Source: a virus (taxonomy: Duplodnaviria; Caudoviricetes). Taken from it: DNA of 64,000 nt. Below are positions 21,602-49,417 of this stretch, one piece after another. Made by a program: the position numbers and the translations under genes. The notes beneath the pieces were generated by a model. That model made no database searches. It saw only the letters and a program-made list of their open reading frames with translations, and was not told the origin of the DNA. Within the stretch, counting starts at the first letter, position 1; the number at the start of each line of letters is the position of its first letter. The DNA is taken from positions 113,820 through 177,819 of the IMG/VR virus record IMGVR_UViG_3300021387_000299. The stretch is one strand, 5' to 3'.

Positions 21602-23047
21602 AAAGCAGTTTTTTATTTGCGGCGGGGAAGTTTGTGAATGTTTTAACTTTCACAAGCAAGTACGGGCAGTTAGTTTAGACTAACTAACTCGTGCGCTTTT
21701 CAATTTGAAATCATAGATCGTTCCATTTGTCAAGAGAAAAATTTTTTTATTTTTGGTATTGACTTGATCCCGAAATGTGCTATAATAATAATGTAAAAAG
21801 AAAAAGGAGAAAAAATTATGTTCGTATTAATTTCAACAAATGGAAAAATTATGGGTACTTCTGAGGATGCGGAAACTGTTAAACTGGCTTATCTCATGTA
21901 TAAGAAATTGTATCCTCTTAGTGATTTCAAAATTGTGAAAGCTTCCACTCTTAATAAAAAGGGAATCATTAAATTCTTAACAGAAAATATTGAAATTAAT
22001 TAAAAAAGAGGGTTGACAAACCCTTTTTTCGTGTTATAATATAAGTGTAAAAAGAAAAGAGGTAAACAAAATGATGAAAGTTAACAACCTGCCGGAATAC
22101 GCTAAAACAAAAAAGTACATCGTCGCAAGACGCGTGGATGGAGAACTTTGGTTCTGGGGCGCGTGGAACGATAGAGACGCCGCTAATGAAGCCGCTTTAG
22201 AGGAAGGCGGAATCACAATCACAAATGATCTTCTGAAAAATGAATGATCATTTTTTTTATTTCATTTCATTTTCATTTGGGTTTCATTTCATTTTCGTTT
22301 GAGTTTGTGAAAATTAAAACTTTCACAAGTTTAAACGGCGCGGAGTTAGTTTAGACTAACTAACTGGGAGTTAGTCTCCGCTAACGACCCAAAATTATAG
22401 CAGAACTGGCGCCAGAAGTCAAGCGAAAAATTGATCAATTTTTTTAAAAAAATTTCATTTTCCCTATTGACAACAGAAATAAAAGTAGTTATAATAAAAG
22501 TGTAAAAAGAAAGAGGTAAAAAAAATGTTATTAAACAATTTTGACGGAATGGTTACAAAAGTAGATGATGAGCATTACATGATCTCTGATGAATTTTTTG
22601 AAAAAAATAAAAAATGGGCTGGTGATAAAGAAGTCCTGTATGTCCATGAGTTCTTCTATGATGAAGAAATTGAAGATTGGTTCTCTGCTCAGCTTTATAG
22701 AAAAGATAAAAATTTATATTATCTTGAAGAATTGTTCTAAAAATACAAAAGTGGGGGTTGACAAAACCCCCGCTGATACTGTATAATCTAAGAGAAGATG
22801 AGGAGGGAATGACAATGACAATCTTCTATGTATACTACAATAACACTGCTGAAATGTTTGAGGATTTCTACGAAGCCGAAGCATTCGCTGAAAAAGTTGA
22901 CGGGATCCTGTCAGACGCATGGGGTGAACCGATCTGCTGATCGGTTTTTTTATTTTGATAAAAAAGATGAATAAGTTGTGCATCTTTTTGTTGCATTATT
23001 AGAATTTTGAGCGTATAATGATAGTAGAAATAAGGGAGGAACACAAG

Positions 23048-23260: not shown

Positions 23261-24448
23261 AGCCTGCTTTTTATTCTTAGTAACTTGTGAATGTTTTATC
23301 TTTCACAAGTTTGAGTTAGCGGCCGCTAACGGGTCGAAAAATTATAGCACAGTCCGCCGCAGATGTCAAGAGAAAAATTGAAAAAAATTTAAAAAAATAA
23401 ATAAAAAATCCCGAAATTAGGTGTTGACAAATAATAACCAATAGACTATAATAATAATGTAAAGAGAGGTAAGAAAGATGAAAATCAAGGTTGAATACTC
23501 AGAGGGCGCTGGGTGCGTAGCTTCCTATTGTGAAGAATGGTTTGAAGAGTTTGAATCAATCGTGGAGATGGTAGCATTTATGAAAAAGTTTGAAGAGCGG
23601 TTCCCGGATGCTGAAATTTCATTCCATTCAGATGGTATCCTGTCTATCTGCAGAGAATTATAAAAAAAATTAAAAAGAGGGGTTGACAACAACCCCTCAA
23701 CCGACTATAATAATAATGTAAAGATAAGGAGGACAAAAACATGACACTTTACATCTTCGAAAGAGGCGAGGCACTCGCAAGAAAGCTCAGCAGAGCTGAG
23801 ATCAGAAACCACGAAAAGGAATTCGGAAAGCTGATCCGCACAATCAAAAACTACTGCTAAAAAGCAGTATTTTTTTATAAAAAGTATTGACAAATAATAG
23901 CCAGTAGGCTATAATAATAATGTAAAAAGAAGGAGATAAAAAATGAAAGTCCAGTTTAATAAAAATGAAATTGAATACCCTGAAAATACAATTCCCGTTG
24001 AGTTCATCTGCGCTTATAGGGATCAGGCATTGGCTGAAATGGTCCACTGTAAAGATGATCCTGTGAAACATGATCAGTATGTATTTTTAAGAAAAACTCT
24101 TAAAGAAATGATTGAAAATTGGGAAAACATTGTTGACAATCAGTAAAAAAGTGCTATACTATAAGTGTAAAGAAAAGGAGAACACAACATGCTGAAATAC
24201 CTCGGAACAATCAAAAAGTCATCCTTCACTCATCCCACTCACAAATGGGTGGTATCATCTGAAGAACATCCCTTCCGCAAGTTCCCTACTAGCGGAGAAG
24301 GCGCTTCAAGAATGATCAGAAAGATCCGCGCAAAGGGTGAAAATCCTACTATCTATAAACTTGTGGATTAACACAAGTTTTTTTATTTTAGGTATTGACA
24401 GACCAAAAGAAAAATGTTATTATAATAGTGTAAAGAGAGGTAAGAGAA

Positions 24449-24676: not shown

Positions 24677-26766
24677 AAAAAGTGTTGACAAACACTTTTT
24701 TTGTGTTATAATAATAATGTAAAGAGAGGTAAGAAAAATGAAAGAGTATTGCAATGACTGGGAATGCCCGCACAACAAAGACGGAGAATGTGTCGCAAAT
24801 GCTGAAGAGTACGCACAGTGCTTTGATGAACTCTTGGCGGCGCTCTCAAGGCTGAAAAAGTCGCAAGAAAAAAATAAATAAAGTGTTGACAACAATCCCA
24901 TAATCAACTATAATAATAATGTAAAGAGGAGGAAACAAAGATGATGCATCTCTCACTGATTAAAACTTACTGCAAGGTGATCGCCGAAAAAGGCGACTGG
25001 GCGATCTGGTATGAGGACGGTGGCTATAAGTATGCCGAAGTCCTCGACCCCGAAGAGGGTTGGATCTCCTACTCCTGCAATTCAGAGTCTGAATGGCAGA
25101 TGCTCACCGAGAGGTGAGTTTTTTTTGCTTAAAGCGTTTGGTCGCGCGCCCACGATCCATGCGCGCGAAACTTCAATTATACCACGCGATCAGCAATTTG
25201 TCAAGCGATTTTTTGCAAAAAAATTTTTTTATTTTTTTTCCTAAAACCCTTGACATTTTTCTAAGGTGTGGTATACTAATAATGTAAGGAGGGGAGGGCA
25301 ACCCGAACGGGATGCTCCACGTGAAGCGCGTAAGACCCTTCCGCCAAAGACCTTGCACCGCCCGGAGTCCTGTTGGCGCGGTATATAAATGTGAACCAAG
25401 GAGGCAACTCCAACCCGCGGTTGACCGCTCGCTCTTGGAAAGGGGACGGCAGGACAGAGCAATTTCTTTGAAAAAATACTTGACTTTCCAGTCAGATGTG
25501 CTATACTATACTTGTCAATAGGAGGAACTTACAATGACAGCTAGATATTTCTTATTCCACGATGCAGAGCACGACCAGGACTTCGTGGTCTGGGCCCATG
25601 ACGAGATGGGCGCTTGGCGGTGTCTCTTTGAAGACGACCCCGTCTGGGCTGATGCCCAGGTCACCTTTATCGGTGAAGTCTCCTACGAGGAGCAGAAAGG
25701 AATGAAGCAGTATTATTAAGCTTCATCCTTTTTTAATTAACCATATAGCGCCCGGCGTGCCGCCGACGCGCGCTTTTTGCGGAGGCGGCACGTCCTTCCA
25801 TTATAACACGCATAGGCAAAAAAGTCAAGCGCAAATTGCAAAAAATATTCGAAAAATTTTTTTCCTAAAATGCTTGACTCATGCCTACCCATGTGCTATA
25901 CTATAAGAGCAGTAAGGGAAAGAGCTATAAAGCGATAGACCAGTGTGCGGACGCTCTCTAAGAATACCGGAAAAACCTTATTGCGGAGCCTATTGGTACG
26001 GCTTTCATATATGGCTTATGGGAGAAAGTAACTCTGTGCACAAGTTTTTCTCCCATAAGGCTTGACATTTATTTCCAAATCAATTATAATAAAATTAACA
26101 AAAGGAGAAAAGAAAAATGGAAAAAACAAACAACACAATCGCATTGAGAAATGGTCGCTACATCTCTCTCTCTGAAATGGAATACAAATATATTTCCAAG
26201 ACATGTGATATTATCAAATGGTTAGTTATTCTGATGGGCAATTGTGATTATAGTTGCGCATGTGATGAGAATGGAACCTATCTCTTCTCAAAAGAAGATT
26301 TAAGGCTGTTAAATGATCTTCTTTCCAAAGTAAAAGATATTAAAAAAATTGGACTTTAAAAAGAGTTGACAAACTTTTTAAAAAATGATATAATAAAAAC
26401 ATAAAGAGAGGTAAGAAAAATGTTTGAACACAATAGCACAGTTCATGTAGTCTACGTTAAAAGCTCCGATTCAGAACAGTACAGACAGAAGTACCAGGAC
26501 GCCGTTGATGAAATTCAGAGACTGAATAGAATCATTGACGAGCTTAAAGAAAAGCTTCAGTCTACAGAAAAGGAACTTCATCTCATGGAAATTGCCAACA
26601 GTTCCCTTGCAGGAATGGTTGACGATCTGACCGATGAGGTTAATGCTCTCTATGTAAAGCTTCATGACTTCAACAACTAAAAAATAGCACAAGCTATTTT
26701 TTTAATTTAGGGGTTGACATTTGTTCCAATAGTGCTATAATAATAATGTAAAGAGAGGAAAATGAA

Positions 26767-27177
26767 ATGGAAAAAATCGTTGTATACCTTGACATGGATG
26801 GAACTATTGCTAATCTGTATGGCATCAAAAATTGGCTTCCCCGTTTAAGAAATGAAGATGAAACAATCTTCTTGGAATGTGCGCCGATGGTTACTGAAAG
26901 CGAACTGCGCAAACACTTTCCCGAAAGTCTGTATGATGTGCGGATTCTGTCAATGACACCAATGAACGCAAGTGCTGAATACTGCATGAATGTAATCAAT
27001 CAGAAAAACGCATGGCTTGATAAATATTTCCCTTCAATTTCGAAAAGAATCTACCGCAAGTATGGACACAATAAGAATCTGAAAAATTCACAGTATGCAA
27101 TTCTGATTGATGATTCAAAATCTATCAGAGAATCTTGGAGAGGTTTAGCTTTTGATCCCGCTATCTATTGGGATTAA
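26767..27177 (+). CDS. HAD-superfamily 5'(3')-nucleotidase-like protein
   Basis: YLDMDGT motif I, ILS motif II, K..WL, ILIDD motif IV. Confidence 0.8.
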   Translation: MEKIVVYLDMDGTIANLYGIKNWLPRLRNEDETIFLECAPMVTESELRKHFPESLYDVRILSMTPMNASAEYCMNVINQKNAWLDKYFPSISKRIYRKYGHNKNLKNSQYAILIDDSKSIRESWRGLAFDPAIYWD

Positions 27178-27702
27178 AAGTTTTTTTTATTTGACTTTTC
27201 ATTTTAAAATGATTATAATTAAAGTATAAAGAAAGGAAAAATAAAAAATGAAAGTTATTATTAGCTACACTATCTATGAAGAAAAAGAAATTAAGGTCTC
27301 CAACAAGTATGCTATCCTTCGCAATTATCCTGCCGAATTAAATGAACAGCTCAGGCGAGAATGGAGGGCTAAATCTGATGAACTTTACACCGAGGCGCTT
27401 GAAGCCATTCCCGCAGATGCTGAATTTTGCGCAGTCAGAGACGCCAAAGATGATGAAATTTTATTTGAATTATAATTAAAAATGCGGAGACCCCCGCATT
27501 TTTTAATTGATTTTTGCTTGAACCTTTTGGCGATCCGCGCGCGAGCGTCTTTCTTGCGCGCGGATCGAACTTTCATTATACCATGCGATCCAGATTTTGT
27601 CAAGCGAAAATTGAATAAAAAATTTATAAAAAAAATATCCCAAAATGCTTGACTCCAAGAGCAAAAAGAGTTATTATAGTAGTGTAAAGAGAGGTACGGA
27701 AA

Positions 27703-27933
27703 ATGACAGAGTTTGAAAAGAAATTAATTGGCACTTTGGAAGAGTTCGAGGATGAAGATACTTGCGGAATGTCTTTTGAAGAATGGCTCATTGACGGAAT
27801 TGAATTTTTTACAGAAGATTGCAATGAAGAAGGTACTACAGAAGAAGAAATTGAATGGAATAAAAAAGAAATTGCATGGTATAAACAGGTTCTTGAAGCT
27901 TTAAATAATGGAACGTATGATAACTTAATTTAA
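27703..27933 (+). CDS. Highly acidic small protein, probable paralog of 23048-23260
   Basis: MSFEEWLIDGIEFFTEDCNEE vs YSFEDWLVESAEWFAQECGEQ. Confidence 0.7.
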   Translation: MTEFEKKLIGTLEEFEDEDTCGMSFEEWLIDGIEFFTEDCNEEGTTEEEIEWNKKEIAWYKQVLEALNNGTYDNLI

Positions 27934-29443
27934 CCATTTATAAAAAAGAGTTGACAGACTCTTTTTTTGTGCTATAATAATAATGTAAAGAGAGGTAAAG
28001 CAAATGAAAACATTCACAAGACAGGACATCGCCGAATTAATCGAAAGTATTGGCGGACGTATCCTTGATAACGGAGATGATTACATTGAAGCTACTAGCA
28101 ACTATAGTTGGAATACCCTTTGGTTCCAGTTTGATGAAAATGGAATTTTGATTGGAATCGGTTGCTAAAAAAATAAAAAGGGGGTTGACAATAACCCCCT
28201 AATTAGATATAATAATAATGTAAAGAGAGGAACCAAAAGATGAAACAGTACAAGAACTCAAACGGAACAGTTACAACCTACAACATGCGCAATGAGGAAA
28301 TGGCTCGCAACCTGCGCAAGCTCGGTCACAAAGTCGTTGAAGATAAAAAGAAGAAAGCAAGTAAGAACGCTTGCAGAAAGGGGTGGGAATAATGACAAGG
28401 GAAGAAAAGTCAAAATTCCATCGTGATCTTATTGACCTTTTGACCAACTGTAAAGATGATCAAACATACTATGAAAGAATGGTTTACAGCTTACAGATTA
28501 TCTCAAATGAATTAACTTATTTCAAAATCCAAAAGGAAGAAAAATAAAAAAATACTTGCATAAATACTAAAAGCGTGATATACTAAAGATATAGAAAGAA
28601 AGAGGTAAAAAAAATGAAACTTACAGAAGAACAGAGAATTATCCTTGACGGCGAAATTACCCTTGCAATTCTTAGATTTGTTGGGGATGAAAATTTCGAT
28701 AAAGCGATTGAACGCTATGACGAAATCAGCGAACTCTGTAACACTGCAATTGAAAATTTCCTTGCGACTTGCTAAAAAAAATTGGGTAAAAGCCCATTTT
28801 TTAGTTGATTTGGCGTCGCGCTCGCGGGCGCTTTTCCTGCGAGCGCGACGTATTTTCCATTATACCACGTATACCAGATTTTGTCAAGCAAAAATTGTGA
28901 CAATTTGTTGGCAAAAAATTTTCCTAAAATTGACACTTTTGGGGGTTGTAATTGTCATAAAAAAGAGTATAATAATAATTGTCAAGAGGAGAAAGCAACC
29001 AACCTCTCCCAAGCGCATAACTTGGTGTAAGTAAAATCGGCACTCTTCACAAAAAATACTTCAAAAACCTCTTGACAAAGTATAACGAATCTGCTATACT
29101 ATAATTGTCAAGAGGGGATGGTTGGGTCATCCCGTGGGGACAGAGCTATCTGATGAACTATAGTAAACTGACCACCATTAAAAATAAAAAATGCAAAAAA
29201 ACCTCTTGACAAAGTATAGTAAATCTGCTATACTAAGAATGTAAGAAATGAGGAGAATCCCGTTCGTGGCACAAAGGAAGGTTGGAAACCGAGGGATCTT
29301 AAATGGAAAGCGACAGAACTCTGATAAAAATCCTCTATCAGACAGAGCGCAAAATCCTCAAATTTCTTCAAAAAACTTATTGACAAATCTTAAGAAACAG
29401 TGTATACTTAAAGTGTAAAAAGAAAGGTAAAAGGTGATTACAC

Positions 29444-29818
29444 ATGGCAGAAAAGATGAACCTCACAGAACAGATTAACTCCATCGCATTCGAAGGACTG
29501 ACAGAAGAGCAGTTCGCATTCCTCAAGGAAAGAGCACTGAAGTCTATCAGAAAGCCTTCCAAGACAAAGGCTCTGACCAAGACTCAGAAGGACAACCTCG
29601 TTTTCAAGGAAAAGATCCTCGCCCTGCTCGGTGAAAAGGGTAAGCTGACCGCTACCCAGATCGGCGAAGAGCTTGGGTGGAAGGGTTCTCAGAAGGCAAC
29701 CGCTCTGCTTACTCCGATGGTAAAGGCGGGTACGGTTGTCAGAACCGAAGAAGGCAAGGTCAAGTTCTTCTCCCTTGCCGAGGTTGAAGAAACCGAAGAA
29801 GAAGAAGAAGAGGAATAA
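29444..29818 (+). CDS. Winged-helix DNA-binding protein (family with 45836, 32343, 37118, 53756)
   Basis: C-terminal ILALLGEKGKLTATQIGEELG..KATALL..V.R; strong codon bias; poly-Glu tail. Confidence 0.75.
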   Translation: MAEKMNLTEQINSIAFEGLTEEQFAFLKERALKSIRKPSKTKALTKTQKDNLVFKEKILALLGEKGKLTATQIGEELGWKGSQKATALLTPMVKAGTVVRTEEGKVKFFSLAEVEETEEEEEEE

Positions 29819-29847
29819 CCCCGAAGGGGCGCAAGCCCCTTCCTCAT

Positions 29848-29923
29848 ACGCCCTTAGCTTAATAGGTAAAGCACTTGACTCTGAATCAAGAGAGTGAGGG
29901 TTCGATTCCCCCAGGGCGCGCCA
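29848..29923 (+). tRNA. tRNA-Gln(CTG)
   Basis: Cloverleaf; anticodon arm CTTGA-CTCTGAA-TCAAG; GTTCGATTC; CCA end. Confidence 0.9.
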
Positions 29924-29929
29924 TTATAT

Positions 29930-30073
29930 GGGAGATTGGATTGCACAAATCTGACACGGCGGGCAGTGCCTGACCGCTTCACCTCTGACAGTTGCCGTGA
30001 ACCTAGGATAACACGGTAAACAAGTGAAAGCGCGTAGAACAGGCGCAATTGGGTTCGACTCCACCTTCTCCCC
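29930..30073 (+). ncRNA. tRNA-like structured RNA
   Basis: GGGAGA/TCTCCC terminal stem and GGTTCGACTCC T-loop, but about 140 nt and no canonical anticodon arm. Confidence 0.5.
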
Positions 30074-30310
30074 TAAAAAACCGCTCCAAGCCAATAGGTC
30101 CTCCTCCTTGCCTATTGGCTTTTTATTTGGCGTTTCGTTGCCGGGCGCTTCTCTTGGCAACGAAACGTGTTTCATTATACCACACGATCCAGCATTTGTC
30201 AAGCAAAAATTTCGAAAAAATTTTTTTAAAATATTTTTCCCAAAAGTATTGACACATGCCCTTAATAGTAGTATCATTATTACAGATAAAGAAAGAGAGA
30301 GGTAAATAAA

Positions 30311-30637
30311 ATGACAAAAGTTGGAACAGTTTACATGGTTACAGAAAAGGGTCTCCGCACAGTAAAGGTTGGTTTCACAACAGACTGGGCAAAGAGAAGA
30401 GGGAATTATCACACACACAGCACTTGCGCAAGAATCATTGACATTATGGATGGTACAGACACTGATGAAAAGATGTATCAGCAGAAAATGCTTGAAATGG
30501 GATTTACAAAAGCCTTCAAGTATTCTCCAAGAAATGAATGGTTCAGACTTCCTAAGGGCATGAAGAAATCAGAACTCGAACATCTCGGATTCGGAATCTT
30601 TCAGAAAGATGAAGAAGAAGATGAAGAAAATGCTTGA
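30311..30637 (+). CDS. GIY-YIG/T5orf172-like domain protein; ends in TGA
   Basis: GTVYMV..VKVGFT....R..Y, E..Y, NEWF. Confidence 0.7.
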   Translation: MTKVGTVYMVTEKGLRTVKVGFTTDWAKRRGNYHTHSTCARIIDIMDGTDTDEKMYQQKMLEMGFTKAFKYSPRNEWFRLPKGMKKSELEHLGFGIFQKDEEEDEENA

Positions 30638-31176
30638 CAAAGCATTTTTTTTGTAGTATTATAATAATGTAAAGAGAGGTAAAACAAATGAGAATGACAT
30701 TAAAACTCGCTAATCAGCTTATGGATTCACTCGTATGCCTTGCCATTAGTGCTAATGGCGGTGCAGACTATGACCACTTACCAACAGATGAACAGATGGC
30801 GTTGGTTACGAAGTATGCCAGCAATAAACTTCTTGAAATTTGCGCAGAATGGGAAGTCCTCAAGGGAGAAGAGTGGGAGATTGAAGAACCGGAAGAAGAG
30901 GTCGATGAAGAACCCACCCTCGATCTTGACATGGGGTTTGACCCCTACATGGGATGCTACACAGATGACTGCTGAAAAGCAGTTTTTCTATTTGACTGGG
31001 CGGGCCGTTCGCAGGCGTCTTTTCCTGCGAACGGCCCGAGCTTTCCATTATACCACGCGGCAGAAAATTTGTCAAGCATTTTTTTTGAAACTTTAGTGTC
31101 AATTTTTATCCCAAAATGGCACGCCTGGATCTGTGTGCATGGTTTGCTATTGGTAAACTTTTTGTTTAAAAAAGGC

Positions 31177-31869
31177 TCATCTCTGAGCCTTTCTCCAACA
31201 GTTATAGTATAAACCGTACTGCATGTTATACTTCTTAACATTTTTTACAATGTAGCGCAAGATTTCTGTTTCATCTTCTGCGTCACTTAATGCCGTGTGT
31301 TTTTCAACATAGTCATTCTTTCCTGTAATGAACCGATAACAAACTTCTGCATTTGTTTTAAAATTGCCTGCTTCAGAAATGTAGTGATTTTCTTCTGCAA
31401 ACTGATGATACCGTTCAGTCTGCAAGATTGTTTCACATGCAAGGTTATAGATACAGAGCAGATTTTTACTCTTCTGATCAAGGACCTTTGCAAGATTCTG
31501 TTTTTCTCTATTGAACAGCTGTTCAGTGTATTTAATAGCTTTGTAGTCAAACTGTAAATTGTATGCGCTGATAGTTGTTACTTTAAACTCTTTGATCAAT
31601 TTCACAATTGTTTCTGAAATTTCTTTCCAATAAACAATCTTTTCAGTTTTCCGTGCCTGCTTGTAATCTTCTGAATACTGATTGTAAAATTCTGATGTAG
31701 CAAGCATCCACCTTGCATCTCTGTGAAGTTCTCTAACTAAGAACCGATCTTTGTGTAAAATATTGAAATTTTTATCAATGATTGTAAATCCAATGTCATG
31801 AACCAGCGGAGTCCCAAAATTGCCGATTGTTTCAGTATCAAGCACCATGATGTTGTTTCTTGTTCTCAT
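31177..31869 (-). CDS. DEDDh 3'-5' exonuclease
   Basis: VLDTET, AYNLQFD, HTALSDA motifs. Confidence 0.85.
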   Translation of the reverse strand: MRTRNNIMVLDTETIGNFGTPLVHDIGFTIIDKNFNILHKDRFLVRELHRDARWMLATSEFYNQYSEDYKQARKTEKIVYWKEISETIVKLIKEFKVTTISAYNLQFDYKAIKYTEQLFNREKQNLAKVLDQKSKNLLCIYNLACETILQTERYHQFAEENHYISEAGNFKTNAEVCYRFITGKNDYVEKHTALSDAEDETEILRYIVKNVKKYNMQYGLYYNCWRKAQR

Positions 31870-32342
31870 TCTTATTACCTCTTTTCTATACCATTATTAT
31901 AACAGTTCCAATTGAAAATGCAATACTTTTTTTAATATTTTTTTAAGGGGAGTTAGCTACCGCTAACGACCGAAAATTATACCACACTCACGACCAGAAG
32001 TCAAGAGGAAAATTGCGAAAAAATAGTTGAATTTTTCTAATTTCCCGGACGACTTTGTGAAAAAATTAGCAAAATTTTTTATTGCAATTTTAAAAAATAA
32101 ATTATATAATTATTATAGAAATAAGGGAGAGATAAAAAATGAAGAAAAAATTTATTGAGCATTACTTTAATGACTGTTTAACTCAAGAAGATTTTGACTA
32201 TCTTAGAAGTCTGCCTAAAGAAGAGGCTTTAGAACTCTATCAAGAAATTCAAAGAATGGAAATTCTTCTTTACTTAAGAGGTTGACAATCTAACCAAAAA
32301 GGTGTATACTAAAGATACAAAGAAAGGTAAGAGGTGATACAC

Positions 32343-32693
32343 ATGAAAGAACCGACAAAGAAAGACCGTTATGAACAGATTCTGACTTACGTTGCAGACA
32401 ATGCTGAACTGGTAGCATTTGTCAACCATGAACTTGAATTGCTTGCAAAGAAGAATGCGTCAAAATCTGCAAAGCAGACCGACAGACAGAAAGAAAACGC
32501 TGATCTGATGACCGTTATCTATGACGCCATGGAGAATGCAAAACAGTACAGAGTAACTGATCTGATTGCGGAAATTCACGAATTGAACGGAATGAACACA
32601 CAGAGAGTTGCTCCGATTCTGAAAAAGATGTGCGACAATGTGCTGGTCACCCGTGAAGTTGTGAAGGGTGTCGCTTACTTCACAAAGATTTAA
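32343..32693 (+). CDS. Winged-helix family protein, close paralog of 37118-37471
   Basis: Shared QKENADLMTVIYDAME, GMNTQRVAPIL, DNVLVTREVVKG.AYFTKI. Confidence 0.8.
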   Translation: MKEPTKKDRYEQILTYVADNAELVAFVNHELELLAKKNASKSAKQTDRQKENADLMTVIYDAMENAKQYRVTDLIAEIHELNGMNTQRVAPILKKMCDNVLVTREVVKGVAYFTKI

Positions 32694-32765
32694 TCTCACA
32701 AAAATAGCGGATAGGGGTTGACAAAACCCCTATCCCATGCTATTATTATTACAGAAAGAGAGGTA

Positions 32766-33161
32766 ATGACAATGGCAAGACGGACAGCCGAACAGACTGA
32801 AGCGTTGATTCAGAAACACATGAGAACATTACATTGCACTAGAGAAGAAGCGATTGATGTTATCAAGTGTGATGATGAAATTGACGGCGGAAACACTGAA
32901 TTATTTGCACTGACCGCTGATCAGAAAAAGATGGTTAGAAATCTCACGAAAGCGGATAGAGATCCTACGGTGAAAAGAGAAGTCAAAAGAGATAGAAAGA
33001 TTGACGATGATAAGTTGAAAATCTTCACTGTCTTGAAAGAAGCCCTTGAAGGTGCAGAAATTGAAAATCTGTCATGCAAGAATGAAGCAGAAATCAGTTT
33101 CACCTACAACGGCGCGGAGTACACCGTAAAGCTCACAAAGCATCGTGCAAAAAAGGCTTGA
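32766..33161 (+). CDS. Hypothetical protein, paralog of 37518-37889
   Basis: Shared LI..HMRTL.CTREEAI and YT..LT.HRAK. Confidence 0.75.
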   Translation: MTMARRTAEQTEALIQKHMRTLHCTREEAIDVIKCDDEIDGGNTELFALTADQKKMVRNLTKADRDPTVKREVKRDRKIDDDKLKIFTVLKEALEGAEIENLSCKNEAEISFTYNGAEYTVKLTKHRAKKA

Positions 33162-36100
33162 CAATAAGCCTTTTTTGTGCATGGGAAATGATACACCTGG
33201 AGCTGTGGACATGATAGACAACGGAACCAGGTGTGCCGAAAAATTTTTTAAAAAAGTGCTTGACAAACGCTTGCGGATGTGGTATAATGGCCGGTCCGCT
33301 CGCGGCGCTTCTCTTTGCGAGCGGACCGAACTTTTATTATAACATACGATGCACATTTTTGTCAAGCAAAATATCAAAAATAAATAAAAAAAGAATTTTC
33401 CTAAAATTCTTGACAGGTAAGCGATAAAGTGTTATTATTATTACAGATAAAAGGAGAGGTAACATGGATATTTCGGAAATTGAGAACAACCCTATTGCTA
33501 TTGAAGCAATAAATCATTATTTATCTGAAGTGATTGCGCATAGTTATAAATGTCAGCATTGTTTTCTTTACCACCCTAAGAGAAACTATTGCCTTTATGC
33601 CTATGAATGTATTAAAGATGATTATTGTTTTTACAAAGAAGATGAATAAAAACTCTTGACAAACCAATAGCTAAATGATATTATTATTACAGATAAAGAG
33701 AGGTAAGAAAAATGACGTTAACTTTAAGAGAAATTGCCCTTATCGTAGTATTCGCTGTATGGTATTTAAGTGCTTTAATCAGCAATTGGGATGATAACTA
33801 TACATGGCATAATGCATTCTATGCTATCGTTCAGCCAATTGTACTTCCAACAATTGTGTGTGGAATCCTTTACATCTTATTCTTCTAAAATATTTCCGAA
33901 GGGGGTTGACAACCCCCTTCCAATAGGCTATAATAGTTAATGTAAAGAGAGGTAAAAGAAAATGATGTTTGAACCGTTAATTAGTGGTGTTAGAGTTACA
34001 GGATTTAAAATTGAGTGTCCTATCAGTAGACGACTTGTCACTTTGCAGGAATGCATGGAAAAGTTTCATCGGCAGGAAACAATGGATTTCGTTCTTGATA
34101 CCTACCGTTTCACTTTGTGTGAAGATGGTGAATGGTGCGCAATCCTTGATTACGATGATCTCTATAAAATTGCAATCCTTGAATCTTATCCATGGTATGA
34201 AGAAGAACTGATTGAATATTTCGGTAAAGACTGGCTGAAATATTACATCAGATTTGAGCACTAAAAAAAATGTGGGTCGGAGCGATAAACTCCGACCCTT
34301 AGAAAAGTTTAAAATGGAATGGAATGTAGGTTTTCCCTACGATTTTATTATAACAAAAAATTTTTTTTAAGGCAAAAAATTTTTTATTGACATTTAAAAA
34401 AAATCTGTTATAATAATAATAGAAAGAGGGATAAAAAATTATGGATTTAGGAAAAGTTTTCACTAAAAAGTATGAAGAGTTTGAAAGAGCAAGTATTCAG
34501 ACACTTGTTTCTCGTCATGTTACTGCTATGCAGTTAAGGGATGGCTACGATGCAGACGCGTATTTCCTGTCAAAGCTGGCGCTTCTTGAAAAATTAAATT
34601 ATGACGTTGTAGAATTTAATGCCTTGATTATTAAGGAAAAAGAGCGCAGATATAATTGGGAAATTGAATGTGCTAAACGTGATTACGATCGCTACAAAGA
34701 TGTTTCTACTGAAGACCTTGGTCGCACCATTAAACATTGGGGTTCGGTTGATGGCCCGGGAGATTATGCAGCTCTTGGTTGTATGGAACGCGAACTTGAA
34801 ATGAGACTGGAACCTCTTGACATTCGTAAAGCGTTATTCTTGTCTGATCTGTAAGAAGCTGAAAAAATCAGCTTTTTGCTATTGATTTGGCGAGACCTTT
34901 GCGGGCGTCCCTTGCGCAAAGGTCTCGAACTTCCATTATACCATACGACGCAAAAAATGTCAAGAGAAAATGTTAAAAAAAATAAAAAAAATAATTTTCC
35001 CAAAACTATTGACAATGAATAACCAATAGTCTATAATAGTTAATGTAAAGAGAGGTAAGGAAAATGACACTTGATGAAATTGCTAAAAAAGTTATTGAAA
35101 AGGCTCGGAATGACTGGAGAGACAGCGTTATTCAGAGTAGAATTACAGTTCTGAAAGCTATGGACAATGCTATTCGTAACATGAATGATGAAGAAGCCTT
35201 GGAGCCTTGGCTGATGGGTGGTGTTCCGGATGAAGCTTGTGAAGAAGATTATGAGGATATCGCAAGCGACCATAACAGCTACATTGAAGTAGTTGAATTA
35301 TTTGCAAAGATTACAACAAACTACGCTAAAGAAGATTTCTAAAAAATGTAGAAGAAGGGGTTGACAACCTCAGCCCCTTCTGATACAATAGTTAATGTAA
35401 GGAGAGATAAATATGAAATTTGAATGGTCTTATCATTTAGATGGTGTTGTTAAGTTTAAGCCGTATCCTTTCTATGACAAATCGTATGATACTTGCGCTA
35501 TGTTCTACAATGAAAAAGGTGAAAACATTGTATTATGTTTTGACACCTGTCAGAATTGCTGTGAAGACTTTAATCTTGAATACAATAAAAATTTTCACAG
35601 AAAAGAAGTAATTTCTGAAACAGGAATTACTGTAAGTTGCCATAGAGTGAACAGATTCCGCTGTGAATGCGGTGAAAAATATATCTTCTTTGTTGATACT
35701 GGTAAAAAGATATATCAGATTGCCGTATCAAATGATCATAATGGATATTATGGTCATTACGTAGGTGTTTCCAAAAATAAAGAATTTGTTTGGGAAACTT
35801 GCATTTAGGGGGTTGACAACTCCCCCTTCTTGCACTATACTATTATTGTAAAAGAGGTAGGTGCAATGAAGAACAACATCCATAAGAAAATGACTCATGA
35901 AGATGAGTTTAGTCGTAAACACGCTTGTTGGGTAGAAAATAACCGCAAAGCTTGGCACTTTTGGAAACATAAAACCCGCAAAGATTTCCGTAGAAAAATA
36001 AAAAAAGTAGTTGACAATTCTATGGAATAGAGTATAATAATAATGTAAAAAGAGGTAAGAAAAATGGAATTGAAAAAGGTTATTACATTGGGATTTAATC

Positions 36101-37117
36101 GCAAAGAATGGAATACCCTTCTTGATGCGGCCCGCCTGCTTGAAGATCTCGGTAAAGAACTTCAGAAGCTTGGTCCTAACGAAGATGTAACTCTCAGATG
36201 CTCGGAAAATGGCGTTGAATGCGTCTTCATTGCTTCCCAGCTCTACGAATTTTCCACCACGCTTGATCTTATCGCTGAAGGTGGCACGATCACTACTTCA
36301 TAACCGCTCGAACTGACCACCCTCCTCCTCCTTGGGGTGGCAGTTTTTTATTTGGCGGCTCGTCTGCGGGCGCATTCTGCTGCAGACGAGCCGAGTTCTC
36401 CATTATATCACGATCCGCAAATTTTGTCAAGAAAAAATCAAAAAATTTTTTAAAAATTATTTTTCCCAAAATGCTTGACACCATTATTGTAATGTAGTAT
36501 TATTATTACAGATAAAGAGAGGTAAACAAAATGACGATAGATGAATTAAGTATCTTCTTTGATAACATTGAACATAATATTAGTCCAAACGCTGAAATTA
36601 CTTTCCTTCAGTATGATAGCAGCGACAACAAAGCAATAGTTGATTACGTTAACAGTATCGGAGAAGAACTTCGCTATACTTGCGAAATTAATACTGATTA
36701 GACGCTCCAACCGCTGATCTACTCCTCCTTGGGTCAGCGGTTTTTTTATTGATCCAGCGGACCCTTTGCGCGCGTATTTTGCGCAAAGGGTTCGAATTCT
36801 TCATTATACCACACGATCAGAAAAATGTCAAGCAAAAATCTTGGCAAAAAAGTGCCAAAAATTTCTCCCAAAATTGACACTTTTCCTATTGCAATTGTCA
36901 AAAAAATCAGTATAATTATAAGTGTTAAGGGGATGGGGCAAGCCCCACGAACCGAGCCAAAGGGCGAGCACGTAAACCATGGTAAATCGTGCAAAGGGGA
37001 GTGGGATACAGGGCTGAAGTCACTCGCACAAATTTGCGAAACTTTAACCAAAACCCCTTGACACATTCTCCAAAATCTGCTATACTATCTATGTAAGAAA
37101 GGAAAGGTGGTAACACT

Positions 37118-48217: not shown

Positions 48218-49417
48218 ATGATGGATGTAAGAGGAAAGTTTGGAGAAGCAAAGATTTTTACCGATGTAGTTGACGAAGCTAGCATCGCTCAGGTTATTGA
48301 AATGTTAAATCAGCCTTTTGCGGAAGGTCAGAGAGTCAGAATGATGCCGGACATCCATGCGGGAGCAGGATGTACTGTAGGTACAACTATGACCATTGGC
48401 GACAAGATTTGTCCAAACTTAATTGGTGTTGATATTGGATGTGGTATGCAGGCAGTTCGTGTAGACGCTGATCACATTGATTTTGCGGTTCTTGACAAGA
48501 CTATCCGCAATCTTGTTCCTTCAGGGATGAATGTCCATACAAGATCTGGTAGAAGACCCGTATCAATTGATCTTGAGTCTTTAAGATGCGCGCATGCGTG
48601 TGATCTTGAAAGAGCAAGAAATTCAGTTGGAACTCTTGGAGGGGGAAACCATTTCATTGAGGTAGATCGTGACTCTGCTGGAAATTTATGGCTTGTTGTT
48701 CACTCTGGATCTCGCCATCTTGGAGTTGAAATTGCAACTTTCTACCAGAAGGCGGCAATTGAGAACTTACACCAGGTTTCTGCTGATAAAAGAACTGCTT
48801 TAATTAACTCTTTAAAGGCAGCTGGAAGACAGTCTGAAATTCAGAATGCTTTAGCTAACTTACAGCCGGCATATCCGCACATCCCGGATGCTTTATGCTG
48901 GTGTGAGGGTGATTTAATGCAGGATTATTTGCACGATATGAAGATTGCTCAGCAGTTTGCGGTAGCAAACCGTCAGGCTATTGTTGATATTATCTTAAAC
49001 CGCATGGGTCTCCACGCTGTTGATGGTTTTTCAACTATTCATAACTACATTGACCTTGATAACATGATTCTTCGGAAGGGTTCTGTATCTGCGCAGAAGG
49101 GAGAACGCTTAATTATTCCAATGAATATGAGAGACGGTTCTTTAATCTGTGTTGGAAAGGGAAATCCTGACTGGAACTACTCTGCTCCGCATGGTGCAGG
49201 AAGAATCATGAGCCGTGGACAGGCAAAGAAAGAAATCTCTTTAACTGACTTCGAAGATTCAATGAAGAATGTATGGACAACTTCCGTACAGATTTCAACA
49301 ATCGACGAATCTCCTATGGCTTACAAGCCTATGGAATCAATCCTTGAGAATATTGTAGATACCGTAAGGGTCGTAGATATTATCAAGCCGGTTTATAACT
49401 TCAAGGCATCAGAATAA
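48218..49417 (+). CDS. rtcB: RtcB family RNA 2',3'-cyclic phosphate/5'-OH ligase
   Basis: MPDIHAG, GVDIGCG, GTLGGGNHFIE, HSGSR, HNY, HGAGR, DESPMAYK. Confidence 0.95.
   Translation: MMDVRGKFGEAKIFTDVVDEASIAQVIEMLNQPFAEGQRVRMMPDIHAGAGCTVGTTMTIGDKICPNLIGVDIGCGMQAVRVDADHIDFAVLDKTIRNLVPSGMNVHTRSGRRPVSIDLESLRCAHACDLERARNSVGTLGGGNHFIEVDRDSAGNLWLVVHSGSRHLGVEIATFYQKAAIENLHQVSADKRTALINSLKAAGRQSEIQNALANLQPAYPHIPDALCWCEGDLMQDYLHDMKIAQQFAVANRQAIVDIILNRMGLHAVDGFSTIHNYIDLDNMILRKGSVSAQKGERLIIPMNMRDGSLICVGKGNPDWNYSAPHGAGRIMSRGQAKKEISLTDFEDSMKNVWTTSVQISTIDESPMAYKPMESILENIVDTVRVVDIIKPVYNFKASE

Follow-up and report, generated by a model that had tools for sequence, protein, structure and literature searches.

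The analyses presented here suggest that the early genes of an uncultured gut phage are bounded by transcription units that point backwards. The window, which is the whole 64-kb stretch analysed and the last part of a 177.8-kb IMG/VR virus record (34% GC), carries ten minus-strand units, each composed of a consensus promoter followed closely by a GC-rich hairpin. Our tentative interpretation, which we regard as quite possible, is that each one is a hairpin-capped convergent antisense transcription unit acting in cis as a brake or an insulator on the early cassettes. Exact TTGACW-N16-19-TATAAT promoters were far more frequent in the window than in shuffled sequences (36 observed, 0.26 expected), and they included ten TTGAC(A/T)-N17/18-TATAAT promoters on the minus strand that were each located 6-8 nt from a GC-rich hairpin, nine of the ten with TGn or TRTGn preceding the -10. 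A preliminary description, made from the sequence alone, had placed ten such units at these positions; all ten were recovered with their hairpins close to the promoters, while its spacing of 7-8 nt widened to 6-8 nt. The units are the following:

25142-25204, minus strand: unit 1, promoter 25204-25176, hairpin 25168-25142 (8 bp, 11-nt loop), then CCAAAC.
25756-25828, minus strand: unit 2, promoter 25828-25800 (TTGACT), hairpin 25792-25756 (9 bp, 19-nt loop).
27531-27603, minus strand: unit 3, promoter 27603-27575, hairpin 27567-27531 (12 bp, 13-nt loop), CCAAAA and a bidirectional terminator at 27503-27478.
28814-28887, minus strand: unit 4, promoter 28887-28859, hairpin 28850-28814 (12 bp, 13-nt loop), then CCAAAT.
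About 28796-28783: terminator of unit 4, after CCAAAT, with T runs on both sides.
30131-30202, minus strand: unit 5, promoter 30202-30174, hairpin 30167-30131 (12 bp, 13-nt loop), then CCAAAT.
31001-31075, minus strand: unit 6, promoter 31075-31047, hairpin 31038-31001 (15 bp, 8-nt loop).
33292-33365, minus strand: unit 8, promoter 33365-33336 (N18), hairpin 33328-33292.
33260-33288, plus strand: second consensus promoter, facing unit 8 across its hairpin, 3 nt from the stem.
34891-34963, minus strand: unit 9, promoter 34963-34935, hairpin 34927-34891 (13 bp, 11-nt loop), then CCAAAT.
36356-36430, minus strand: unit 10, promoter 36430-36402, hairpin 36393-36356 (12 bp, 14-nt loop), then CCAAAT.
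36758-36831, minus strand: unit 11, promoter 36831-36803, hairpin 36794-36758 with one A.C mismatch (G.U on the plus strand).

The usual geometry in the window was a 12-bp stem with a 13-nt loop; the loops were purine-rich, most of them ending in CGCC(C), and CCAAA followed the stem in six units, as had been described. Perfect GC-rich stems of at least 10 bp with 7-20-nt loops were almost confined to these units in the whole 177.8-kb genome. No credible open reading frame (ORF) was found behind any unit in the window, again in agreement with the preliminary description, and the Shine-Dalgarno (SD)-like strings that might have signalled hidden small ORFs proved to be terminator loops or complements of tRNA T-arms.

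The units occupy a constant place in the early region. Between about 21.7 and 38.3 kb, the window carries small plus-strand genes; every one has a TTGACA-N17-TATAAT promoter to itself, and its short leader reads AATAATGTAAAGAGAGGTAA..ATG. On the gene-sense strand, the module runs from the stop codon to a canonical terminator with its U-tract (T1), GG, the hairpin, 7-8 nt, the reverse complement of TRTGnTATAAT, the 17-bp spacer and TTGACA, and then through about 45 bp of A/T-rich DNA to the next sense promoter, whose -10 was often slightly imperfect (TATACT, TATTAT or TATCAT). The minus-strand RNA is predicted to start at a purine 2-3 nt before the stem and to proceed through the hairpin, CC and an A-tract, which is the complement of the T1 U-tract, into T1. 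Unit 5 converges on the tRNA-Gln operon and the terminator of this operon (30088-30121). Unit 6, located behind a minus-strand gene (31869-31177), lacks a divergent sense promoter for that reason, and the role of the unit is therefore independent of such a partner. The face-to-face promoter arrangement of unit 8 also occurred in L012, L015, L020, L032 (twice) and L034, which are loci from the relatives described below.

The stems varied from copy to copy and remained paired. When the ten units were aligned on a 12-pair helix, with slid partners and 500 shuffles as controls, nine of the 12 pairs had changed on both sides, 91.7% of the cells were paired compared to 27-41% with slid partners, and none of the 500 shuffles reached the covariation score. 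Selection acts on the pairing and not on the stem sequence. The preliminary description had proposed that structure, stem length and loop were all under selection; the first stood, whereas stems of 7-16 bp and loops of 4-22 nt across the family did not bear out the other two, and the 12-bp/13-nt geometry turned out to be a habit of this phage that its relatives do not share.

The family was assembled from 119 loci in uncultured animal-gut phage contigs of about 20-400 kb, obtained from IMG/VR pattern scans (30 and 83 loci) and from regions of five related genomes; a unit was defined as a consensus promoter whose -10 has a GC hairpin beginning 5-12 nt downstream. These loci contained 1,271 consensus promoters, 237 of which carried a hairpin, and the family consensus read TATAAT-GGAAATTT(C)-stem-loop-stem-CC(N)AAAAAA. 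The distance from -10 to stem was 7-8 nt in 179 of the 237 units, regardless of stem or loop length, a spacing at which the RNA would begin at the hairpin foot. Orientation separated the two promoter classes sharply: hairpin promoters converged on an opposite-strand ORF in 174 cases and had a same-strand ORF next in 33, while the hairpin-less ones did so in 110 and 746 cases, respectively (odds ratio 36, p = 1e-87). The units of L018 and L037 were also antisense to their genes. The module is present in 5-15 copies per genome, next to genes that have nothing in common and in one case next to a tRNA operon. Its constant convergent placement after early-gene terminators argues for a cis role rather than for a trans-acting sponge.

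Orthologous units of close relatives differed by compensatory pairs, for example GGCGCTTTTG/CAAAAGCGCC in L029 and GGCGTTTTTG/CAAAAACGCC in L030. In this pair, the only one compared, the modules were 90-96% identical while the cassettes between them had been replaced or inserted; the module was kept while its flanking genes were swapped, and it thus behaves as portable punctuation. DNA matches between the window and the five related genomes were limited to modules, and in two relatives whose genomes have direct terminal repeats, most of those to the early-region modules of the window fell at the genome ends. Further units were present in 25 out of 33 contigs binned into metagenome-assembled genomes from animal gut, mostly labelled Clostridia or Eubacteriales, labels that, given the presence of Treponema and Methanobrevibacter among the bins, hint only weakly at the host. 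A lone match in Clostridium prolinivorans came without a hairpin, and searches of isolated phages by megablast, tblastn and blastn (phage collection) yielded no relative. At the gathering score, Rfam returned tRNAs only, and just noise below it, including an SR6 antitoxin match with an E value of 0.9; the units therefore lie outside the Rfam families, as had been supposed. No description of the module was found in the literature, Rfam or isolated phage genomes.

How such a unit could work can be outlined from its parts. Unmodified host sigma-A RNA polymerase would bind a near-ideal promoter (A/T-rich upstream region, TTGACA, 17-bp spacer, TRTGn, TATAAT and a GGA discriminator) and would start at a purine 2-3 nt before the GC-rich hairpin, so that the RNA would have almost no single-stranded 5' end. 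In Firmicutes, untranslated RNA with a stem at its 5' terminus is shielded from RppH and RNase J1, which drive 5'-end-dependent decay, and the hairpin may in this way cap and stabilise the 5' end of the antisense RNA. Past the A-tract, the transcript would run through the terminator hairpin of the early gene that precedes the unit, and it would often continue into that gene because its terminator is mostly one-directional. In the antisense direction, T1 is preceded by the A-tract and was followed by at least four T in the next 8 nt in 16 out of 82 cases, about as base composition predicts; with antisense T-runs this rare, many units would send polymerase into the upstream gene. Good own-direction terminators were found in the window for units 3, 4 and 8 only, the predicted RNA of unit 8 spanning about 180 nt to a bidirectional terminator at 33177-33148. 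The discrete RNAs of about 60-110 nt that had been proposed for all units are therefore not necessarily made, the following terminator serving mostly the sense gene. Converging polymerases, together with a stable RNA able to pair with the upstream message at its 3' end, could wall off or damp the cassette in cis and stop read-through into the next one.

By analogy, the units would work most like convergent 3'-overlapping antisense RNAs. Convergent cis-antisense RNAs over the 3' end or the terminator of their target include lambda OOP, RatA, SR4 and SR6 from type I toxin-antitoxin systems of Bacillus prophages, and RNA II of pAD1 par; they are non-coding, have their own constitutive promoter and are encoded at a single locus tied to one target, and RNA I of pAD1 par has a protective 5' stem-loop. 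An antisense transcript of this class is expected to lower its target, through RNase III or interference. The likeness to OOP, RatA, SR4 and par RNA II is one of geometry only (own promoter, no ORF, convergent orientation, overlap with the 3' end or terminator of a gene), and the units differ from them in being a generic many-copy module behind unrelated genes. The 5'-terminal stabiliser stem-loops of Bacillus RNAs (ermC-type leaders) are short and head mRNAs. They share with the units a hairpin a few nucleotides from the 5' end of a sigma-A RNA, predicted here, and U-poor unpaired parts, whereas the units have GC stems of 7-16 bp, long loops and predicted non-coding antisense RNAs. In the Kayvirus K, a large Firmicutes phage, stranded RNA sequencing revealed small RNAs with no known role, some of them antisense, among the sigma-A-driven genes of the early terminal-repeat region (PMC9241854). 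The antisense RNAs predicted here recall that case, although no repeated promoter-hairpin module was reported there and the two are not related in sequence.

Contigs from RNA libraries (four runs deposited as metatranscriptomes, from two studies, unstranded) offered a view of transcription across the region, which nearly all aligned contigs matched at 99% identity or more. Several began 4-38 nt downstream of predicted sense starts (28984/28998, 32133, 34433, 35082 and 36064/36066), and therefore they look like RNA and not DNA carry-over. Towards the units, contigs ended at 25753, 30161 (in both studies), 33321 (adapter), 34892/34897 and 36377. The end at 30161 was 6 nt from the predicted start of unit 5, and in one contig adapter from the sequencing stood at 33319-33321, 8-10 nt away from where unit 8 is predicted to start; since both lie within the usual 5' loss, they are a weak hint of minus-strand starts. 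Contigs covered parts of five hairpins, with hairpin 10 covered by half and hairpins 2 and 9 barely or not at all, and none of the contigs listed crossed from a hairpin into its own promoter.

Several observations weigh against a hairpin-capped antisense unit. As the contigs are unstranded, sense read-through stopping in the hairpin fits their ends equally well. The sense-strand RNA folded better in seven of the ten window hairpins, by 3-5.6 kcal/mol, and the same preference appeared in the family (46 compared to 26, p = 0.02). A.C mismatches, which would be G.U pairs on the sense strand, outnumbered promoter-strand G.U pairs (13 and 6), counts that are not significant and do not serve to assign the strand by wobble pairs. 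The asymmetry in folding arises because the loops are U-poor and can be read both ways, as open A/C-rich antisense loops or as tighter, G.U-closed sense loops. Moreover, a plain protective cap would need neither 9-15-nt loops, nor a loop motif, nor such strong stems, and both sense and antisense promoters are of the sigma-A type, which leaves the timing of a brake unexplained. That the minus-strand RNA carries the hairpin is nevertheless suggested by the near-ideal promoter at a fixed distance from the stem, by the lack of a U-tract after the minus-strand stem and the poor sense U-tract in the family consensus, and by the apparent habit of this phage, whose other ORF-less transcripts (34326-34340 and a GTTAGC-N4-GCTAAC class) carry a small hairpin close to their beginning, unlike its mRNAs, which open with a ribosome site.

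A different explanation, unlikely in our view yet the most serious of the competitors, holds that the units produce abundant small hairpin RNAs that act in trans, their loops being recognised by a host or phage protein. Such RNAs could act as decoys or sponges, drawing off a nuclease, a sensor or an RNA-binding factor, or they could be nascent-RNA elements that modify the transcribing polymerase. It would account for the high number of copies in a genome, for the great strength of the promoter in every one of them and for long loops that are poor in U on the promoter strand (10-12% T across the family). A subfamily from several distinct phages also has, towards the 3' side of the loop, a purine run leading to CGY(C) (22.9% of loops compared to 9.1 +/- 2.6% of shuffled ones for the run to CGY), and some orthologues keep the loop while their stems change by compensation (cccggagga in L038/L053 and cagctgcaagcgcc in L015/L020). 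However, no common loop exists across the family, with lengths from 4 to 22 nt, and in the window the loops were not more conserved than the stems (pairwise identity of 0.556 and 0.61, respectively). The strictly convergent placement just after early-gene terminators is left unexplained by a trans role, own-direction terminators are missing from most units, no binding partner is known, and no Rfam family matched. A search of the phage genome for trans targets of at least 12 nt in stems or loops found none besides the loops of the units themselves and a 12-nt match of unit 11 at about 24327, which is probably due to chance.

Within this line of thought, we consider it doubtful, and worth stating, that the loop is itself the recognition element and that the units give abundant 5'-triphosphate hairpin RNAs with effects away from the locus that makes them. 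Such RNAs could serve as decoys that draw off a host RNA-binding factor of defence or decay, or as switches on nascent RNA resembling put or boxB, in which case an antisense polymerase that ignores terminators could silence the early cassettes on a timer. The boxB element of lambda nut, which adjoins boxA, has a 5-bp stem and a 5-nt loop. The points of resemblance are an RNA hairpin close to the promoter of a phage early transcript, predicted here, and purine-rich loops that recall boxB. HK022 put comprises two conserved stem-loops and conserved sequence and acts on polymerase as nascent RNA (PMC9378689); neither the put nor the boxB pattern is present in the units. If the loops bound a factor, they would be a new class of phage RNA effector, and the units would amount to a novel RNA-based layer of early-gene control or counter-defence across many uncultured gut phage contigs.

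It is about as doubtful that the hairpin works on the sense strand, as a fail-safe second terminator behind the canonical one, with the polymerase parked on the antisense promoter forming a head-on roadblock; read-through would be kept out of the next cassette, with the antisense RNA arising as a by-product. The greater stability on the sense strand, where extra G.U pairs close the loop to 7 nt, speaks for it, as do the four of the ten hairpins that a simple scan called plus-strand terminator-like, the G.U pair of unit 11 in place of its minus-strand A.C mismatch, and the RNA-library contigs that extend from sense genes to or into the hairpins and then stop. In a handful of relatives (L012, L018, L020 and L116) a stop codon leads straight into the hairpin and any other terminator is missing, and a dual role is therefore possible. 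Conversely, the family consensus on the sense strand opens after the stem with (G)AAA, poor for intrinsic termination; in full it reads (G)AAAUUUCC, with A adjoining the stem, which speaks against an optimised sense terminator. The distance from the promoter to the upstream terminator ranged from 41 to 91 nt, unlike the fixed geometry of a roadblock, the start of the stem within 7-8 nt of the -10 is left unexplained, and the G.U asymmetry is small, a consequence of U-poor loops.

We find it improbable that the promoter block of about 130-170 bp is chiefly a homology patch for shuffling early-gene cassettes, with an incidental hairpin. Promoter-early stem-loop (PeSL) cassettes of T4-type phages offer the precedent: they are repeated intergenic blocks in which a stable stem-loop and A/T-rich DNA accompany a strong sigma-70-type promoter, they flank small orphan genes, and they were proposed as sites of gene cassette exchange (Arbiol et al. 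2010, PMC2839356). There, the stem-loop stands upstream of a promoter driving the next gene, with an SD sequence and ATG following (PMC2839356). The units are likewise repeated intergenic promoter, A/T-rich and stem-loop blocks in a plastic early region beside small orphan genes, with cassette exchange seen in one pair (L029 and L030); in contrast to PeSL, their promoter points backwards, the hairpin starts its own transcript and no gene follows. The conserved modules around exchanged cassettes in that pair and the matches to five related genomes limited to modules fit a recombinational function, and so does an orphan TTGAC, which suggests insertion into older promoters. This TTGAC, 5-8 nt before the hairpin on the gene-sense strand and with no matching -10, was noted in 18 out of 117 units (L010, L020, L033, L034, L037, L050-L052 and window positions 30990-31000). 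Nevertheless, covariation and fixed promoter spacing show selection on the hairpin itself, variable stems lower the homology, and any repeated regulatory block can give rise to shuffling as a side effect.

A DNA-level element, either a cruciform or a transcription-primed replication origin, is very improbable: perfect inverted repeats beside strong divergent promoters with an A/T-rich stretch between them, and divergent -35 hexamers at steps of about 10.5 bp, would suit it, but there are at least 10 copies per genome, 9-15-nt loops disfavour cruciform extrusion, the GC-rich sequence downstream of the start is not easily unwound, and the compensatory changes fit an RNA or single-strand hairpin equally and contain nothing specific to replication. 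The stepping itself was seen upstream of the hairpin promoters (L009-L133), where the divergent -35 hexamers had preferred gaps of 44-48, 58-59 and 68-69 bp, roughly one helical turn apart. This stepping, the loop motif and the face-to-face promoter pairs are not well accounted for by any of the readings, including the antisense unit that we favour.

Other identities for the hairpins were tried and rejected. A minus-strand intrinsic terminator is at odds with a stem followed by CC and an A-tract instead of U, and REP/BIME-like palindromes with stems that differ in nearly every copy; the preliminary description had raised both a known terminator and a REP-like family as possible matches. RNA anti-CRISPRs (solitary repeat units), whose copies mimic one CRISPR repeat of the host, were set aside since no stem sequence is common to the copies. 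Decoys of the tRNA acceptor-T minihelix or CCA end would have a 12-bp helix, a T-loop and then the discriminator with CCA, whereas the units have stems of 7-16 bp and no T-loop, and CCA lay within 6 nt of the stem in only 36 of 99 of them. The Cuckoo/CcsR family (RF02344; loops with CCUCCUCCC) scored 32 bits (E 0.009) at 30044-30172 compared to a gathering score of 58.8; this sub-threshold ar14/Cuckoo match combines the terminator at 30088-30121 with hairpin 5 and is driven by the terminator loop. Mimicry of SD or anti-SD sequences by the loops was not supported (core SD words in 14.8%, compared to 12.7 +/- 2.9% in shuffles), and the resemblance of the loop AAGAGAAG to the leader AAAGAGAGG is expected for purine runs.

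The same region contains further non-coding features. A second class of minus-strand consensus promoters (22394-22422, 23341-23369 and 31976-32004) has a conserved small hairpin, GTTAGC-N4-GCTAAC, at about +9, the third of them being located upstream of the minus-strand gene 31869-31177. At 34274-34375, the minus strand carries a self-contained small-RNA gene of another design, with a TTGCCT-N17-TATAAT promoter, a 5' hairpin GTAGG/CCTAC (34326-34340) and a proper terminator with a T run (34298-34274). ORF-less, GC-rich and structured stretches follow sense TATACT promoters on the plus strand at 25250-25480, 25874-26060, 28946-29420 and 36876-37100; several of them sit directly downstream of an antisense unit, and the one at 28946-29420, with three tandem promoters, had the deepest coverage in the RNA-library contigs. 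In compact gene junctions (22753-22771, 23677-23698, 28179-28200 and 32709-32735), the sense -35 lies in the loop of a PeSL-like G-run/C-run hairpin whose T run is often better on the minus strand. Three plus-strand sense terminators (30088-30121, 36313-36343 and 36709-36742) share the 12-nt loop UCCUCCUCCUUG, which resembles an anti-SD sequence, and the 5' flank CCGCTCNAA, while their stems differ yet pair. Directly after tRNA-Gln, a tRNA-like element of about 144 nt (29930-30073, plus strand) pairs GGGAGA with TCTCCC in the manner of an acceptor stem and includes the T arm GGGTTCGACTCCACC; it was called by neither ARAGORN nor Rfam. The window also encodes an RtcB RNA ligase (48218-49417, plus strand; Pfam E 2e-62) and several tRNAs, and the phage appears to invest heavily in RNA biology.

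Altogether, the module is real, apparently has not been described before and probably takes part in early-gene control, and its interest comes mainly from its wide spread and regularity. If the units do fire backwards into early genes, they would provide a simple, portable and host-polymerase-driven way of bounding or timing the genes of host takeover. With its ideal promoter, the hairpin that clamps the 5' end and the convergent terminator, the design could also be a compact part for engineering. Should this interpretation hold true, it would supply a rule with which early regions and non-coding transcripts can be annotated in uncultured Firmicutes phages.

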